Origin: a virus
Lineage: Duplodnaviria; Caudoviricetes
Virus record (IMG/VR): IMGVR_UViG_3300029930_000001
Span: 10,935 to 74,934 of that record
Strand: one strand, 5' to 3'
DNA length: 64,000 nt
This document shows positions 3,475 through 55,939 of the stretch, piece by piece (positions within the stretch are counted from its first letter, which is position 1; every line of letters starts with the position of its first letter). The notes below the pieces were generated by a model that was not told the origin of the DNA, made no database searches, and saw nothing but the letters and a program-made list of their open reading frames with translations. The position numbers and the translations under genes were made by a program.

Positions 3475-4143
3475 ATGGAAGAAATCTGGAAGCCCATTCC
3501 AGGGTATGAAGCATGCTACGAAGCATCAAGTATTGGGCGCGTTCGCTCGCGCAGAAGGGTCGTGATTGACGTTAAGGAAGGCAGGCAGCGCAAGCGTGTT
3601 TTCAAGGAGCGCATTCTTTCGCCCAATATATCGGCAAAGCATGGACGCCCCTCTGTGATGCTATCTGTCCAGGGGCAAACAAAGCGCATTCTTGTCGCGC
3701 GATTGGTTTGCCTTGCTTTCCATGGACTACCGCCAGAAGGAAAAACCAATGTTTTACATTATGACGACAATAGCGATAATAATGTGCCTGAGAATTTGCG
3801 ATGGGGAACGCTTAAAGAAAACGCCGCAGACATGCGTCGCAACCTCGGTTATTGGCCTGCCTATATCGATGGTCGTTCATTGCGGCCACGAAAGCCACTG
3901 GGGGATCCCCTTATGAACGAAGCACAAGTGAGAGTGCTCCGTCGACTCCCTGACATGCGCCATCTTAGGGGAATTAGGACTGACTTGGCTAATGCTTGGG
4001 GAGTAAAGCCTACTAGCATTACAAGTGCGAAGAATGGCGGCAAGGGGTGGGAAGAGCTTTCCACCGAGCCACTTTGGGATATGGCAGAGCGGCTCTCGGG
4101 CAAGTTTATTGGGAGGGAAAGGCCCAAAAGGAAAGCTTGCTAA
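3475..4143 (+). CDS. NUMOD4-HNH homing endonuclease
   Basis: EEIWKPIPGYE..YE.SS.GRVRS (NUMOD4) and RLV..AF....VLH.DDN..NN..ENLRWGT..EN (HNH_3). Confidence 0.85.
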   Translation: MEEIWKPIPGYEACYEASSIGRVRSRRRVVIDVKEGRQRKRVFKERILSPNISAKHGRPSVMLSVQGQTKRILVARLVCLAFHGLPPEGKTNVLHYDDNSDNNVPENLRWGTLKENAADMRRNLGYWPAYIDGRSLRPRKPLGDPLMNEAQVRVLRRLPDMRHLRGIRTDLANAWGVKPTSITSAKNGGKGWEELSTEPLWDMAERLSGKFIGRERPKRKAC

Positions 4144-5883: not shown

Positions 5884-7251
5884 CTACGAGATCAAGCTTT
5901 CAATCCAGCCAATGTCATCGTCGCGACTAGCAGCAAGAATGGCGCCTGCCATTGCAAAAGCAAAGTCGTCAATGCCAGTAGCTTTGCCGCCAGTTACGCT
6001 CCATTGCCCGCTTTGTTTGTAGACAACAGTGAGATTCTTTAATTGAAGAATGGCCTTCTCATGGTTGTAAAGATTGATTTGTCCTGCATTGAACAGTTCA
6101 CGCATTTTGCTGAAAGCTTTCATTTTGGAGCTAACAGTCCAAGTGAGTTCAGTGATGGGCAAGTCTTGAGCAAGGTGCTGGATGGTGCCGGCACTATTGA
6201 ACTGGTCCATCACAATCGTGTCAAACACATAAAGCTTATGTTGCTCCTTAATCCAATCTTCCACTGCATTGATATTCACTTCCATCCTTCCATTGATTTC
6301 AAAATCAGCAACAAAGGAATGGAATTTATCAACGACTAACGTGCCGCCTTCAAAATGCACAATACAAGCAGTGTAATCATCACGGCCAACTCCGCCCCGG
6401 GCAGGGTCAAGGGCCAAGACATAAGCTCCTTGGAAGCGTGGGTCTGGGGGGAGAGTTTTTCGGCGCTCATCAATACAGGCATCAATAACATCACTAGCAA
6501 CGAGAGCCGAGAGGTTGGTGGAGAATTGAGCTCCATATTCAACTTTAAACTTCTCCGGATCACGCGCCCGTTCTGTGTCAAGAAACTCTTGCGAAATATT
6601 TGGGTTCATCTCCCACGTTGGGAGATTCACTGCTTGCATGAATGGGAAACGGCCAGAGCTTGCTTCTTTGAAATGCTGGTAGAAGATGCCGTCCGTCAAC
6701 CATGGAGAGGATAGTTCAAGAATGCGTCCACTTCCTCCAAACTGAGCAATAGCAGGAGAAAGTGCGTCGTAGATACCTCTTCCTCCACTGTTTGCATCGC
6801 CTTCAGTGGCAAAAGCAAGTTCGTCAAACACTGCAGCCGCACAGGCAAGACCACGGGCAGCGCGACCAGAAGTGGGAATAGCTTTAAAAACGCAGTTGTT
6901 GCTAATTTCAAGGATGTCTGCTGTTTCGCGAACAATCTCTTGAGCGAAGGGACTGTCAAGAATTAGTTGGCGAATATTATTGAGAGCAATGCGAGCCTGA
7001 TCTTGACTGTTGGCGACGGTAACAATGTACCAGCGCTCCCCTTTTCTTACGCGGCTGCGGTATTGATCTTCCAGGACAAAGCACATATAGGCGCATGCCA
7101 CTGCAGCCATGAGCGTTTTGCCTGAGCGTCGGCCCAATGCCCATACGGCATGGCTCTTGCCTGGAGAGAAGAAATTGTCGAGGATTTTCGCCTGTGACGG
7201 GAAAAGCTCTAGCTTGAGAGCGTGCTTGGCGAAGTCTGAGCATTTAAGCAT
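5884..7251 (-). CDS. terL: terminase large subunit
   Basis: Walker A GRRSGKT, Walker B AVFDE, RNase H-like LALDP...D nuclease, C-terminal DDFAFA. Confidence 0.9.
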   Translation of the reverse strand: MLKCSDFAKHALKLELFPSQAKILDNFFSPGKSHAVWALGRRSGKTLMAAVACAYMCFVLEDQYRSRVRKGERWYIVTVANSQDQARIALNNIRQLILDSPFAQEIVRETADILEISNNCVFKAIPTSGRAARGLACAAAVFDELAFATEGDANSGGRGIYDALSPAIAQFGGSGRILELSSPWLTDGIFYQHFKEASSGRFPFMQAVNLPTWEMNPNISQEFLDTERARDPEKFKVEYGAQFSTNLSALVASDVIDACIDERRKTLPPDPRFQGAYVLALDPARGGVGRDDYTACIVHFEGGTLVVDKFHSFVADFEINGRMEVNINAVEDWIKEQHKLYVFDTIVMDQFNSAGTIQHLAQDLPITELTWTVSSKMKAFSKMRELFNAGQINLYNHEKAILQLKNLTVVYKQSGQWSVTGGKATGIDDFAFAMAGAILAASRDDDIGWIESLIS

Positions 7252-16297: not shown

Positions 16298-17494
16298 ATG
16301 GGCACCACATCCTGTAGGTACGATTTCTCACCCATTGAGAAATATGAAATCACGCCAGAAGGTTATCTTCGGGCGTGGGCTTCGATTGCTCGCACGGGCA
16401 TTCAGCATTACACCGATGCTGATGGTTCTATTAGGCGAGAGTATCGACCACCTTCTGAAGTGGCGTCTCCCGAGAGCCTAGCCTCATTTGCTGGCAAGGC
16501 CATCACTTCTGAACATCCTCCCGTCCTTTTGGACGCAGACAACACTAAAGACTACCAAGTGGGATTTAGTGGCACTGAAGTGGTGTATGACAATGGTTTT
16601 GTTAAAGCAGTGATGACAATCACTGACAAAGAAACCATTGAACGCATCATGAAGGGCGATGCTCGTGAAGTGAGTGCTGGATATAGGGTGAGCTACGACC
16701 CTAGTCCTGGTATCACGGAAGACGGCGAACATTACGATGGCGTCCAAAAGGAAATCATTGGTAATCACATCGCTGTTGTACGTCGTGGCCGTGCAGGCCC
16801 GCAAGTGAAGCTTCATCTTGATCGTCAAGATGCAGCCGATCCATCTCTATTTCCTAATGAAGAGGAACGTCTTATGACTGCAAAAGTCGTATTCGACGGC
16901 GCTGAGTTTGATGTGAGCGAGAGCGTTGCTCTGGCGATCACTAAAGAACGAGAAGACGCCCGCATGTCTTACGAAGACATGAAAAAGAAGTACGACGAGC
17001 TCCAGGCCGCTGCTGATTCTATGAAATCCGAAATGGATGCCATGGAAAAGGAAATGAAGGGCAAGTGCGATTCCGCTGAGGGTCGCGCCGATGCTCTGGC
17101 TGAGCACGTCGAAGAATTAAAAGCAGAACTGGCCGCCGCCAAGGAAATCAACTTTGATTCCATGGTTGAAGAGCGTCTTGCTCTCATTGAAAAGGCTAAG
17201 CCTGTTCTGGATGCCGCTTATGAATTTAGTGGCAAAACCGCCCGCGAAGTGATGGTTGATTCCATCGTTGCAGTGCGTGGCGACAGCATTGACCTGTCTG
17301 AGAAGTCTGATGACTATGTGCAGGCAATGTTTGACACTCTGTCGGAAGCTTCTCGCAAAGATTCCGCTGTCACCGATGAGCTGCGCAAAAGCGTCGCTTC
17401 TTTAGCTGCTCCCATTACTGCACCGTCCGCTTATATGGATTGGCTGCAAAACGCATGGAAGCATCCCCTCTCCATCTCTAAGGAGGCTAAGTAA
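16298..17494 (+). CDS. prohead protease/scaffold (DUF2213-type)
   Basis: ITPEGYL...IARTG, T.EHP, EVSAGY, GNHIAVV..GRAG..V.L.LD; coiled-coil C-terminal half. Confidence 0.85.
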   Translation: MGTTSCRYDFSPIEKYEITPEGYLRAWASIARTGIQHYTDADGSIRREYRPPSEVASPESLASFAGKAITSEHPPVLLDADNTKDYQVGFSGTEVVYDNGFVKAVMTITDKETIERIMKGDAREVSAGYRVSYDPSPGITEDGEHYDGVQKEIIGNHIAVVRRGRAGPQVKLHLDRQDAADPSLFPNEEERLMTAKVVFDGAEFDVSESVALAITKEREDARMSYEDMKKKYDELQAAADSMKSEMDAMEKEMKGKCDSAEGRADALAEHVEELKAELAAAKEINFDSMVEERLALIEKAKPVLDAAYEFSGKTAREVMVDSIVAVRGDSIDLSEKSDDYVQAMFDTLSEASRKDSAVTDELRKSVASLAAPITAPSAYMDWLQNAWKHPLSISKEAK

Positions 17495-53155: not shown

Positions 53156-53536
53156 ATGGCAATGATGTTTTCCATTCCAGTAGGATTAAACTACAACGGA
53201 CACGACTACATTGCGCACATGGGGCCTTTTGAGCGAAGCATGGAAAGGGACTTTGCCCTCGTAGCCAACAAGCGAGCCCTGGCCGAATGTAATGACGTGG
53301 GCAAGCTGCGAGAAGTGGCTGGCAATCTGCTGGAAGGTTGGAGCAACATGCAAGAAGCTTTCACTGCATTGATGAAAGAAAATCTTGAGCTGCGTCAAGC
53401 CATGCAAATGCAACAGCATGATCTTGATGCAGCAGAAGCGCTACTTGGTGAAGCTGGCGATGCAATCAACCGGATGTCCGCAGAACAGCAGCGATCTTCT
53501 CAAGCCAGGCGATTTCTTTGGCCGTTTGGCTCGTAA
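53156..53536 (+). CDS. hypothetical coiled-coil protein
   Basis: 126-aa ATG ORF, divergent from 52808-53125. Confidence 0.55.
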   Translation: MAMMFSIPVGLNYNGHDYIAHMGPFERSMERDFALVANKRALAECNDVGKLREVAGNLLEGWSNMQEAFTALMKENLELRQAMQMQQHDLDAAEALLGEAGDAINRMSAEQQRSSQARRFLWPFGS

Positions 53537-53831
53537 GAAGAAACACTTTCCATCCTCCCATCATGGCAAGGTTGAATTTTCTGCAGTCCCTTTCGTAGCC
53601 GCTTGCACGAACATGTCTGCCGCCGCTAAATGTTCCCCCTTGTATTTCAATGAGAGAGCGAGAAGGAAGATGTGCAAAATCTGCACGATACCGTTTTGAG
53701 CGTTTGCTTTTGGCGTAGCGTTCTTGGAAGTCGACCTCCCAAGCGGGAATGTCGCTGTACTCCCGGACCAATGGAAGGTCGGGATGGTGAGCCCGCCATA
53801 GGCCAAGGAATTGGTCTTCTAAAAGGCTCAT
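53466..53831 (-). CDS. PD-(D/E)XK endonuclease (Vsr/DUF559-like)
   Basis: YRADFA......IEIQGG..SGGRH....GY..D..K.N....GW.V. Confidence 0.8.
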   Translation of the reverse strand: MSLLEDQFLGLWRAHHPDLPLVREYSDIPAWEVDFQERYAKSKRSKRYRADFAHLPSRSLIEIQGGTFSGGRHVRASGYERDCRKFNLAMMGGWKVFLLTSQTAKEIAWLEKIAAVLRTSG

Positions 53832-53845
53832 AGTGAAATGCTAAC

Positions 53846-54268
53846 GCGCTCCTCGCGCCCTTGCCCAACCGAAACTCGCCCGTGCTCACCTAGCCCCTTA
53901 GAACCCCACCGTGCCACTGGCCTTAAATTGCGCTCCTCACGCCCTCACCAGACTCCGCCCCACCTTTGCCAGCCATAACCCACCGAGACAAACCACGCCA
54001 CTGACCAAAACTTGCACTCCTCGTGCCCCAAGCTAGGCAAACCTGTCCACTGCGAACCTTACCCCACCTCGCCATTCCCAACCACACCTCTGACCTTAAA
54101 TTGCGCTCCTCGCGCCCTCACCAATACTCGCTGCGCCACTATCAACCGCGCCATGGCACGCCGTGCCTCTGGCCATAATTTGCGCTCCTCACGCCCTTGC
54201 CCCGCCCGAGCCAGCCGCGGCTTACCTCACCAGGCCCGTCCTGAACAGACCTAACCGCACCTCCGACC
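53846..54268 (-). ncRNA. array of five GGY-NN pentamer guide-like units
   Basis: Units at 54268-54182, 54174-54103, 54095-54014, 54006-53930 and 53922-53846; each is GGYCRGW + 10-13 (GGY-like triplet + NN) + GGGCRYGAGGAGYGC, joined by 7-nt A/U linkers. Confidence 0.85.
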
Positions 54269-54276
54269 AAACGAAA

Positions 54277-54294
54277 GGCTCCCTTTCGGGAGCC
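54277..54294 (-). other. GNRA hairpin leading the array
   Basis: GGCTCCC-GAAA-GGGAGCC followed by TTTCGTTT, 28 nt after the Cas7-like stop. Confidence 0.65.
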
Positions 54295-54322
54295 CTCATA
54301 CTAAGCCGTCAAGAGCGAACCG

Positions 54323-54922
54323 TCAAGAGAAAACGCCTTCGCTCACAGCAAAGCGTCCATAACGCGGCCGCCATTCACACAATCCAATCTGGGAGCCAGC
54401 AGCTTCGGCCAGATCTTCAATCTGCTGCTTATTGAAAACAGCATCGTTAAAGACAATAGTCGCACGAGCAGACCAGCCAGTACCAAAAATCGGACGAGTG
54501 CGCATTACTTTTGCAGTGCCCACGCGAACGCCTTTGCGGAAGACAAACTTGCGGCTGTCGTACATCTCGTCAAGAGCCGTCTCATCAACTGACTCAGGCA
54601 CTCCATCGCCTTCAATCAGCAAGTGATCTTCAACGAAAAGACCGCGAGCAGCATCCTTGCCAAGTCGTGAAAGCTTTGCTGCTCCTACAAGCGATGCTTC
54701 AAAACAGTCAGAAGGAACAATGAGCTTACCTTCGTTGACGTAGAGGCCGCCGCGCCATTCAAGCTTGGCCATCATTTCATGATCGGCCTCTGTCTTTTTC
54801 CGCTTTCCAGAAATCTTTTTGATTTCTTGACTAAAAGCGTAGAACGGGTCGGCCAATTCGCCGTTGTGAACGATCAATGGGGCAATCCCCGTAATCTTGA
54901 AGCTGTAGGACTGTTGCGCCAT
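54323..54922 (-). CDS. Cas7/RAMP-like RNA-binding protein associated with the GGY-NN array
   Basis: ITGIAPLIVHN (beta-1), IVPSDCFEASL (IPGSSLKG-like), RTRPIF...W.A...F, terminal Gly-rich loop GSQIGLCEWRPRYGRF; ATG at 54922. Confidence 0.7.
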   Translation of the reverse strand: MAQQSYSFKITGIAPLIVHNGELADPFYAFSQEIKKISGKRKKTEADHEMMAKLEWRGGLYVNEGKLIVPSDCFEASLVGAAKLSRLGKDAARGLFVEDHLLIEGDGVPESVDETALDEMYDSRKFVFRKGVRVGTAKVMRTRPIFGTGWSARATIVFNDAVFNKQQIEDLAEAAGSQIGLCEWRPRYGRFAVSEGVFS

Positions 54923-55250
54923 GTTCAAAAGAACGTGAAGGACGTTGTGATTGGTGATCAACGATGACAGGCACTCCTTGAAGCTGATGTTTGCGACGGC
55001 GAACGCTGTCTGTAATCGCTTCGTGGCAGTGACGGCAGAGTGTGATCAAGTCGGAAAGACGTTCCTTCCCCAGCGGATATGGGTAATAGAACAACGGAGG
55101 ACCGCCGTATTTGTGATGGACCTCCAAGTCTTCGCAACAACCGCAAGTCTGACAGCAGTGTCCATCAACGTCAAGCCTCTGCTGGCGCTTTTCAGCCCAG
55201 ATTTCAGAGGCCATGTATTTGCTGTAGTAATCGGTGGCTGGCTTATTCAT
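54831..55250 (-). CDS. HNH endonuclease
   Basis: CQTCG...LEVHH....LG.E...DLITLC..CH; overlaps the start of the Cas7-like gene. Confidence 0.8.
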   Translation of the reverse strand: MNKPATDYYSKYMASEIWAEKRQQRLDVDGHCCQTCGCCEDLEVHHKYGGPPLFYYPYPLGKERLSDLITLCRHCHEAITDSVRRRKHQLQGVPVIVDHQSQRPSRSFEHGATVLQLQDYGDCPIDRSQRRIGRPVLRF

Positions 55251-55267
55251 GAGGGTAGATAGTAGAA

Positions 55268-55339
55268 AGGAGGGCGCAAGCCCTCCTCCCCGCCGTGCCC
55301 GACCGTGGCTAGCTGCGCCAAGGCGAAGCGGACCATGCC
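55268..55339 (-). ncRNA. solitary GGY-NN unit with its own promoter and closing hairpin
   Basis: TAAGAT -10 at 55354-55349; 10 pentamers at 55339-55290; AGGAGGGC-TTGC-GCCCTCCT hairpin. Confidence 0.65.
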
Positions 55340-55351
55340 GTTATCGGTATC

Positions 55352-55939
55352 TTACCCCACTCGGGGCAATGTGGCAACTGCGCCTTGGTTTTGGTAGATG
55401 CCATTTCCGTAACCATGTGCCGAGTCCGAACTAAGTTGGACAAACATCACTTGAACAATTCCTTCAAAGCAATAAACTTTAACTGGAAAAGCCAGGGGAT
55501 TGACAATACAAATAGTAAGGTGACCAGACCAACCAGGCTCAATTGGCGTGACGTTAATGATGGTCCCTTGACGCGCATAAGTGGATTTCCCGTCGCAAAT
55601 GCCCATAACGTTTGGGGGCATTGTGATGAGCTCCAAGCTTACGCCAAGCGCGTAGGAAAATGGGGGCAGGATGAAGAAAGTACTGCCAAGCTCCTCAATG
55701 GGAGTGGCCTTGTACATTAGCTCCTTATTGAAAGCCTTGACATCCAGGGCTTCCACTTCCTTGGAATTGTTAATGACCATAAAATCGTCTGGGGAAAGAC
55801 GAAGGTCATAACCAGCATGAGAAAGTCCATAAGACAATGCTTTGGTGCCATTGTCTAGTTCTCTAGTTTTTTCTCCAACGAAAGGGAAAAGGATGTCGTT
55901 TTCTGCAAGAACAGTGATTTCCTTGTCGTTAAGAAGCAT
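55352..55939 (-). CDS. dcd: dCTP deaminase
   Basis: LSYGLS..GYDLRL, GKSTYAR.G, TPIEPGWSG.LT, Y...YQNQ. Confidence 0.9.
   Translation of the reverse strand: MLLNDKEITVLAENDILFPFVGEKTRELDNGTKALSYGLSHAGYDLRLSPDDFMVINNSKEVEALDVKAFNKELMYKATPIEELGSTFFILPPFSYALGVSLELITMPPNVMGICDGKSTYARQGTIINVTPIEPGWSGHLTICIVNPLAFPVKVYCFEGIVQVMFVQLSSDSAHGYGNGIYQNQGAVATLPRVG

Follow-up and report, generated by a model that had tools for sequence, protein, structure and literature searches.

The 1.55-kb cassette at positions 53831-55379 of a 64-kb stretch of DNA from an uncultured environmental phage (positions 10,935 to 74,934 of the IMG/VR record IMGVR_UViG_3300029930_000001; whole phage genome, 74.9 kb) is very probably a Viral Interference Programmable Repeat (VIPR) system, the guides of which are aimed at rival alleles. 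In the following, the window denotes this whole 64-kb stretch. VIPR, a phage-borne silencer similar to CRISPR, was first described in 2026 and consists of the Vipr protein and of vrRNAs with 9-16 YNNGG repeats; the NN dinucleotides read double-stranded DNA (dsDNA) with one base skipped, mostly the wobble base, and the targets lie in competing phages, satellites, and prophages (bioRxiv 10.64898/2026.04.26.720920). The idea of a wobble-skipping guide, proposed for this locus by the initial annotation of the window, is thus already published (preprints of April-October 2026). The data presented below provide independent support for the non-contiguous code of VIPR from uncultured environmental phages. 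The locus comprises the following features:

53466..53831, minus strand: gene of predicted Vsr-like / PD-(D/E)XK nuclease fold (phrog_503), a core gene of the phage group that is not cassette-specific
53831..55379, no strand assigned: putative VIPR cassette of 1.55 kb (solo vrRNA, HNH gene, vipr, array), an insertion relative to vipr-less relatives
53839..54275, minus strand: vrRNA array of five tandem units, each 79-101 nt long
54275-54175, minus strand: unit U1, guide tract 54261-54197, 13 NN
54174-54096, minus strand: unit U2, guide tract 54167-54118
54095-54007, minus strand: unit U3, guide tract 54088-54029
54006-53923, minus strand: unit U4, guide tract 53999-53945
53922-53839, minus strand: unit U5, guide tract 53915-53861, NN = AC GG TC GG TA GA CG GA TC TG AA
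54298..54326, minus strand: sigma-70-like promoter (TTGACG, 17-nt spacer, TAGTAT) upstream of the array, kept in relatives
54323..54922, minus strand: vipr gene, encoding a 199-aa single-domain RAMP protein with a Cas7/Csm3-like predicted fold (phrog_4652)
54831..55250, minus strand: HNH endonuclease gene, inside the cassette, overlapping the start of vipr
55268..55354, minus strand: stand-alone sixth vrRNA with 10 pentamers and a terminator-like hairpin
55352..55939, minus strand: dCTP deaminase gene (dcd), the other flank of the cassette

The skip-1 code in related phages

The five NN strings and the degenerate peptides given in the initial annotation were reproduced letter for letter from the last two bases of each pentamer. 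The accompanying proposal, that each NN is followed by one skipped wobble base, fits the published 1-nt skip rule of VIPR as well as our own data for U5 and the sixth unit. The code was tested on 17 records (1.0 Mb in total), namely six cassette phages with Vipr proteins 88-100% identical and differing guide sets, ten complete vipr-less relatives with terL 91-99% identical, and one further contig. All 23 guides were scanned with a threshold of 85% or more of the read bases, and shuffled NN orders served as the control.

At skip 1, the scan returned 70 matches from 10 of the 23 guides; four of these matches, from two guides of 8 NN, are at the shuffle level. No match reached the threshold at skip 0, a single one was obtained at skip 2 from an 8-NN guide whose shuffled orders reach the threshold too, and skip 3 recovered only the arrays themselves. 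For guides of 9 NN or more, shuffled orders gave approximately 0-1 match per 30 shuffles, and eight guides beat all 200 shuffles, at skip 1 only. Natural targets emerge under the skip-1 reading alone, and it is the wobble base of the codon that is skipped. All strong matches are in phase, and those in the Vsr-like gene adjacent to the array are without exception in codon phase 0. Hence enrichment over shuffled NN orders, a codon-phase bias, and the advantage of skip 1 over both skip 0 and skip 2, all expected from the initial annotation, are observed.

U5 and the sixth unit match rival alleles of the two genes flanking the cassette

The units are numbered in the order of the minus strand, and U5 therefore adjoins the gene at 53466-53831. 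The product of this gene has a predicted Vsr / EDxHD-homing-endonuclease-like fold with weak to moderate support (E 4e-3 to 1e-2, TM score 0.52-0.65), and some of its relatives are labelled Vsr endonuclease by the Joint Genome Institute. Eight of the 16 other records contain a U5 match of 18/20 read bases, always in the homologue of the Vsr-like gene and always at the peptide TGSGYERDAR, with the read bases at codon positions 1-2. Among the eight target alleles, variation is found in 9 of the 10 skipped columns vs. 1 of the 20 read columns. Natural alleles thus show the expected signature: skipped bases drift freely and read bases are fixed.

In the gene of the phage itself, the site corresponding to the U5 target (53577-53609, RASGYERDCRK) matches the guide at 12/20 bases over the ten scored NN and at 14/22 over all eleven; a different site gives U5 its best score within this gene, 13/20. 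The own allele differs at read positions, for example by AGC instead of TCN for serine and AGG instead of CGN for arginine, and escape alleles change the codon family (TCN to AGY for serine; CGN to AGR for arginine) or the amino acid. Among 30 metagenomic protein alleles with a readable site, TGSGYERDARK is the commonest form (23 alleles) and that of the phage itself is rare (4). The last guide of every array matches the Vsr-like gene, and in every case rival alleles fit the guides better than does the neighbouring allele. These matches point to rival alleles of the adjacent Vsr-like gene as the targets of U5, an assignment that we regard as real. The phage's own gene resembles U5 because it is homologous to these targets.

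Read at skip 1, the sixth unit matches the 3' end of dcd in the rivals (peptide PVRVYANEG) perfectly (20/20 bases) in three records. Scores of 17/20 or better are reached in 13 of 16 records, without exception in dcd, and the phage itself offers no match above 14/20. Taken together, the targets of U5 and of the sixth unit imply that the 1.55-kb cassette is directed against both neighbours of its insertion site. Across the 74.9-kb genome of the phage itself, the six guides reach 68-75% at best, i.e., there is no self match at 80% or more. The earlier suggestion of guides aimed at the homologous genes of competitors, tolerant of synonymous changes and avoiding self, is supported both by the VIPR preprints and by these data.

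The phage is in turn matched by the guides of its rivals. The Vsr-like gene of the window is matched at 53629-53657 (17/20) and, on the plus strand, at 53518-53546 (16/18), and positions 53628-53651 give a perfect skip-1 match (16/16) to the last guide of the relative G005. The dcd gene of the window is matched at 55536-55561 by the solo guides of G001 and G002 (18/18), by the shorter guide of G005 (16/16), and by that of G003 (17/18). Both flanking genes of the window contain perfect target sites for guides of relatives; the cassette variants are thus in conflict in both directions.

Proposed mode of action

According to the mechanism described in the preprints, Vipr would polymerise along each vrRNA of ~85 nt, holding every GGY and presenting every NN. 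The NN string would then pair with dsDNA, every third base of the target being skipped, and transcription would be blocked. In this phage, the cassette would disable the dcd and Vsr-like locus of co-infecting relatives and so silence competitors.

Several points weigh against this reconstruction. The same two read bases of U5 differ from every target allele (TC and TG in the guide; GC and CG or AG in the targets). Exact full-length skip-1 scans of IMG/VR with U5 (11 NN) and U1 (13 NN) returned no match, so that natural matches are in the range of 82-100% and not perfect. For U2 to U4, i.e., three of the five guides of the array, no target was identified in the searches made. The accessory gene of type II VIPR, vap1 (phrog_5926), is absent from the 74.9-kb genome.

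Cassette layout and possible homing

In vipr-less relatives, the Vsr-like gene directly follows dcd, whereas in this phage the cassette lies between the two. In all six cassette variants, the solo guide matches dcd and the last array guide matches the Vsr-like gene of other variants. The two targets of the window guides are ~330 bp apart in an empty-site genome, one on each side of the junction. The HNH open reading frame (ORF), a counterpart of which is present in every cassette, shares 92 nt (54831-54922) with the start of vipr (ATG at 54922); its C-terminal 50 residues may be a read-through extension and not a functional protein, and the gene is possibly an accessory (vap-like) gene. HNH-domain vap proteins have been reported for some VIPR types (VIPR preprint).

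What may be new and useful is this layout: each end of the cassette bears a guide directed against one of the two flanking genes of cassette-less relatives, the matches between cassette variants are reciprocal, and orphan guides are directed against vipr or HNH genes. It was not found in the VIPR preprints, from which the words "homing", "flanking gene", "adjacent gene", and "recoded" are absent, and it suggests locus-level selfish dynamics.

An unlikely variant of the VIPR reading that nevertheless merits weighing takes these features as signs of exclusion or homing. The terminal guides would lead Vipr to both neighbours of the empty site in cassette-less relatives, the phage's own flanks being resistant; the HNH protein, or a simple block of replication or transcription, would damage or disable the rival locus during co-infection; and recombination with the resistant cassette-bearing genome would over-transmit the cassette and the linked resistant alleles. 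If true, this would be RNA-programmed homing or marker exclusion by an RNA-guided selfish element. It agrees with the discrete insertion of the cassette between dcd and the Vsr-like gene, with the constant assignment of the terminal guides in 6/6 variants, with the spacing of the two targets around the empty-site junction, with the constant presence of an HNH gene, and with the HNH-domain vap proteins reported for some VIPR types. It is weakened by the absence of a co-conversion gradient around the cassette, as the divergence of the flanks (74-86% nucleotide identity) is not above the genome-wide value, and by the cassette-less relatives G010 and G013, which retain the HNH gene without vipr. 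Furthermore, HNH cleavage is predicted only, the targeting of neighbours could simply reflect conserved early genes, and the characterised VIPRs only repress transcription (bioRxiv 10.64898/2026.04.26.720920).

The vipr-less relatives G010 (L122, ~65980-66063) and G013 (L128, ~69557-69640) carry, directly before the Vsr-like gene, an HNH gene, a TTGACA/TAGTAT promoter, and a single orphan vrRNA. The orphan guide of G013 matches the HNH gene of the window at 20/22 bases (~55096-55127), and that of G010 matches vipr of G003-G005 at 18/22 bases, at the motif GELADPFYAF.

Targets of the guides U1 to U4

The initial annotation had drawn its candidate targets from likenesses, noticed by eye, between the degenerate peptides and the phage's own proteins. 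The quoted likenesses exist (U5, 7/11 at 53609-53577; U1, 6/13 at 17429-17467; the tail of U2, 5/6 at 6312-6298), and none of them is above chance in the window. A six-frame scan of the window with each degenerate peptide, compared with 200 shuffles of the NN order and blind to targets outside the window, gave the following results:

U1: best score in the window 7/13, reached by 94% of the shuffles
U2: best score in the window 6/10, reached by 94.5% of the shuffles
U3: best score in the window 6/12, reached by 100% of the shuffles
U4: best score in the window 6/11, reached by 100% of the shuffles
U5: best score in the window 7/11, reached by 27.5% of the shuffles

The match quoted for U1 (6/13) is not even the best one, as four places in the window score 7/13. 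These shuffles agree with the caveat of the initial annotation that each match is near chance in a 64-kb search. At the level of bases, the two distant sites are as follows:

17429..17467, plus strand: C-terminal site in the phage's own prohead protease/scaffold gene, quoted for U1, 16/24 bases, chance level
6298..6312, minus strand: site in the phage's own terL gene, quoted for U2, 14/20 bases, chance level

Both sites were rejected as pointers to targets. The protease alleles of relatives match U1 at only 15-17/24 bases, and in all of 80 terL alleles the site (KFHSFVADFE) is unchanged and matches U2 at 14/20. Both likenesses, U1-protease and U2-terL, are fortuitous. Of the genes named at the outset, only the adjacent nuclease-like gene is retained, with 18/20 bases of U5 in the rivals. 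Thus, a by-eye search via the phage's own paralogue can point to a true target and cannot establish one: it was right in one case out of three, and none of the three was distinguishable from chance in the window.

For U1, the IMG/VR search required 10 NN to match exactly and left free those positions at which the variant of this guide in a relative has other bases. A single match was obtained (roughly 0.1 expected), in frame, in an orphan ORF of 116 aa at AYLNELENAWRG. This site (L099, 9565-9599) lies in an unrelated 59-kb viral contig and matches U1 at 21/24 bases and the relative's guide variant at 23/24; the orphan ORF is a probable target of U1. It has only three relatives among 1.8 billion representatives. 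Homology of this ORF to the C-terminus of the phage's own protease was considered and could not be demonstrated (pairwise BLASTP E 0.014, no PHROG match).

With up to three mismatches allowed, U2 had no match in 50 related records, which include 13 complete genomes. A search of IMG/VR with nine exact NN of this guide gave two matches vs. ~2 expected (assuming roughly 7e10 bases), neither of them in terL. One, in L103, falls out of codon phase in a spanin-like gene. The other, in a 12-kb viral contig (L104, 2071-2096), lies in phase in the C-terminal immunoglobulin-like part of a 380-aa capsid-like gene; its tenth NN is mismatched, and it is indistinguishable from chance.

U3 and U4, which had been left without a convincing match in the initial annotation, have no credible target in our searches either. 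Ten exact NN of U3 gave no match in metagenomes. A match of U3 in a metagenome-assembled genome of Lachnospiraceae was attributed to chance, as one was seen and ~1 was expected, the next two NN match at one of two bases each, and the ecology is implausible. Ten exact NN of U4 gave no match in IMG/VR, metagenome contigs, or GTDB genomes.

Alternative origins of the guide matches

The matches to the flanking genes could also be a by-product of the origin of the guides, namely copying or gene conversion from the neighbouring DNA of an ancestor, in which case they would be no evidence of targeting. We consider this very improbable. The matched genes are indeed the immediate neighbours of the guides in 6/6 cassettes, and the VIPR preprints, in our reading, give no origin for new vrRNA guides. 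On the other hand, a copy would need re-spacing from a 3-nt to a 5-nt period with insertion of GGY, for which no mechanism is known, and the better fit of guides to rival alleles than to the neighbouring allele holds in every case. Moreover, distant targets exist, including the probable one of U1 in an unrelated contig as well as the published satellites and prophages.

In the trp leader bound by TRAP, spacers separate the (G/U)AG triplets, and by analogy the NN could be free spacers of a protein-binding scaffold RNA and all their likenesses to genes coincidences found by eye; almost no credence can be given to this explanation, which accounts for the shuffle-level scores of all quoted matches within the window and for the low-complexity NN strings in some arrays of other phages, and which is contradicted by the eight guides that beat every shuffle at skip 1 only, by the clustering of matches in one gene, in phase and with variation confined to the skipped bases, by the perfect 20/20 match of the sixth unit, and by the published biochemistry in support of guide function. 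It is refuted for U5 and the sixth unit and is correct for the U1-protease and U2-terL likenesses.

A type III-like CRISPR-Cas array was also considered and rejected. There are no repeats of 25-40 nt with contiguous spacers, and the units consist of GGYNN pentamers with a short handle and a tail.

Architecture of the vrRNA array

Each unit of the array starts with a 7-nt handle, GGYCRGW, followed by 10-13 GGYNN pentamers, a tail hairpin GGGCRYGAGGAGYGC, and A/U-rich bases. The G-richness of the region is strand-specific. A search of positions 53300-54700 against Rfam at E up to 10 returned noise only and no family, and the array is not among the repeats reported by Tandem Repeats Finder.

In relatives with Vipr proteins 88-98% identical, the arrays comprise 3-7 units, the NN strings mostly differ, and GGY is kept. 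The content of the array turns over far faster than the Vipr protein. In the relative with a Vipr protein 98% identical (L006/G002), the promoter, the 5' hairpin, and the leader are common with the window, and no guide is. The terminator-like 5' hairpin (54276-54296, GGCTCCC-GAAA-GGGAGCC), with a U-run behind it, separates the predicted promoter from the first guide and is kept in all relatives; it could mark where vipr transcription ends, where the array transcript begins, or both.

Vipr protein

The product of the gene at 54323-54922 matches phrog_4652 (E 6e-47) and has no Pfam match. Its AlphaFold2 model has a predicted local distance difference test score of 95. In a Foldseek search of this model against PDB, the top matches are Csm3 and the type VII Cas7 (E 2e-6), and VIA-align gives Z scores of 11.3 for Cmr4, 10.7 for Csm3, and 10 for the Cas7 domains of gRAMP. 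The protein is 32% identical to the products of Felixounavirus genes of the same phrog_4652, those of phage SUSP2 among them.

Comparison with known systems

VIPR was characterised in the Felixounavirus clade (SUSP1 group; VIPR preprints). For SUSP1, reprogrammed NN strings silence new targets (bioRxiv 10.64898/2026.04.26.720920); cryo-electron microscopy structures are available (bioRxiv 10.64898/2026.04.26.720927), and competition together with the solo vrRNAs of VIPR-null phages and satellites has been described (bioRxiv 10.64898/2026.10.15.759431).

The system of the window resembles type II VIPR of Escherichia phage SUSP1 and a Pseudomonas fulva prophage in several respects: (i) the protein is a small single-domain RAMP of the same PHROG family, (ii) the vrRNAs have 10-13 GGYNN repeats and a conserved 3' tail, the genes lying between one upstream vrRNA and a downstream array, and (iii) targets in competing phages are read with a 1-nt skip on the wobble base, with no self match at the 80% level. 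It differs in that its Vipr is only ~32-35% identical to that of the SUSP1 type, in that it lacks vap1 and has an HNH gene overlapping the start of vipr, and in that a simple GCGC/GAGGA hairpin forms the tail instead of the pseudoknot of SUSP1. The targets differ as well: SUSP1-type systems are aimed at a satellite or at prophage regulators, whereas here the apparent targets are the two cassette-flanking genes in sister phages.

The orphan units of G010 and G013 are similar to the solo or orphan vrRNAs of the later preprint (bioRxiv 10.64898/2026.10.15.759431), each being a single vrRNA that has a promoter of its own, lies at the same locus, and matches vipr or HNH of VIPR-plus relatives. In contrast to the solo vrRNAs of that preprint, which are from phages of Enterobacteriaceae, the group of G010 and G013 is uncultured and environmental, and the HNH gene at which the orphan guide of G013 appears to be aimed belongs to a target class not listed there.

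Vipr shares with the Cas7 proteins Csm3 and Cmr4 the RRM/RAMP fold with a thumb and a G-rich loop (Z 9-11) and is expected to polymerise along the guide RNA. The period of the RNA is 5 nt with a sequence-specific GGY anchor in Vipr, as opposed to a sequence-independent period of 6 nt in Csm3/Cmr4. Unlike type III CRISPR-Cas, the system has no repeat-spacer array, and the target would be read non-contiguously.

A further likeness is to the free-standing homing endonuclease cassettes and marker exclusion of T-even phages, in which an optional HNH cassette between conserved genes is aimed at the empty-site flanks of relatives and sequence differences at the site shield the host genome. Here, the specificity would reside in RNA guides; the likeness is one of possible working and not of family membership.

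Homologous loci in distant phages

Homologues of Vipr were found in Felixounaviruses (including SUSP2), Pseudomonas phage Medea1, and Mycobacterium phage LittleE, all with GGYNN runs in the adjoining intergenic gaps. Among 76 distant homologous loci from IMG/VR, period-5 GG runs are present on the strand of the gene at 60 loci, with 179 such runs in total vs. 1 on the opposite strand.

In LittleE (L003), GGCNN runs flank a vipr-like gene pair on both sides (2156-2370 and 3650-3950). On the opposite strand, the annotated coding sequence LITTLEE_35, possibly a spurious gene prediction, overlaps the runs on the upstream side. Those on the downstream side precede sequences resembling a tRNA T-arm (GGTTCGAGTCC), i.e., a tail of another type.

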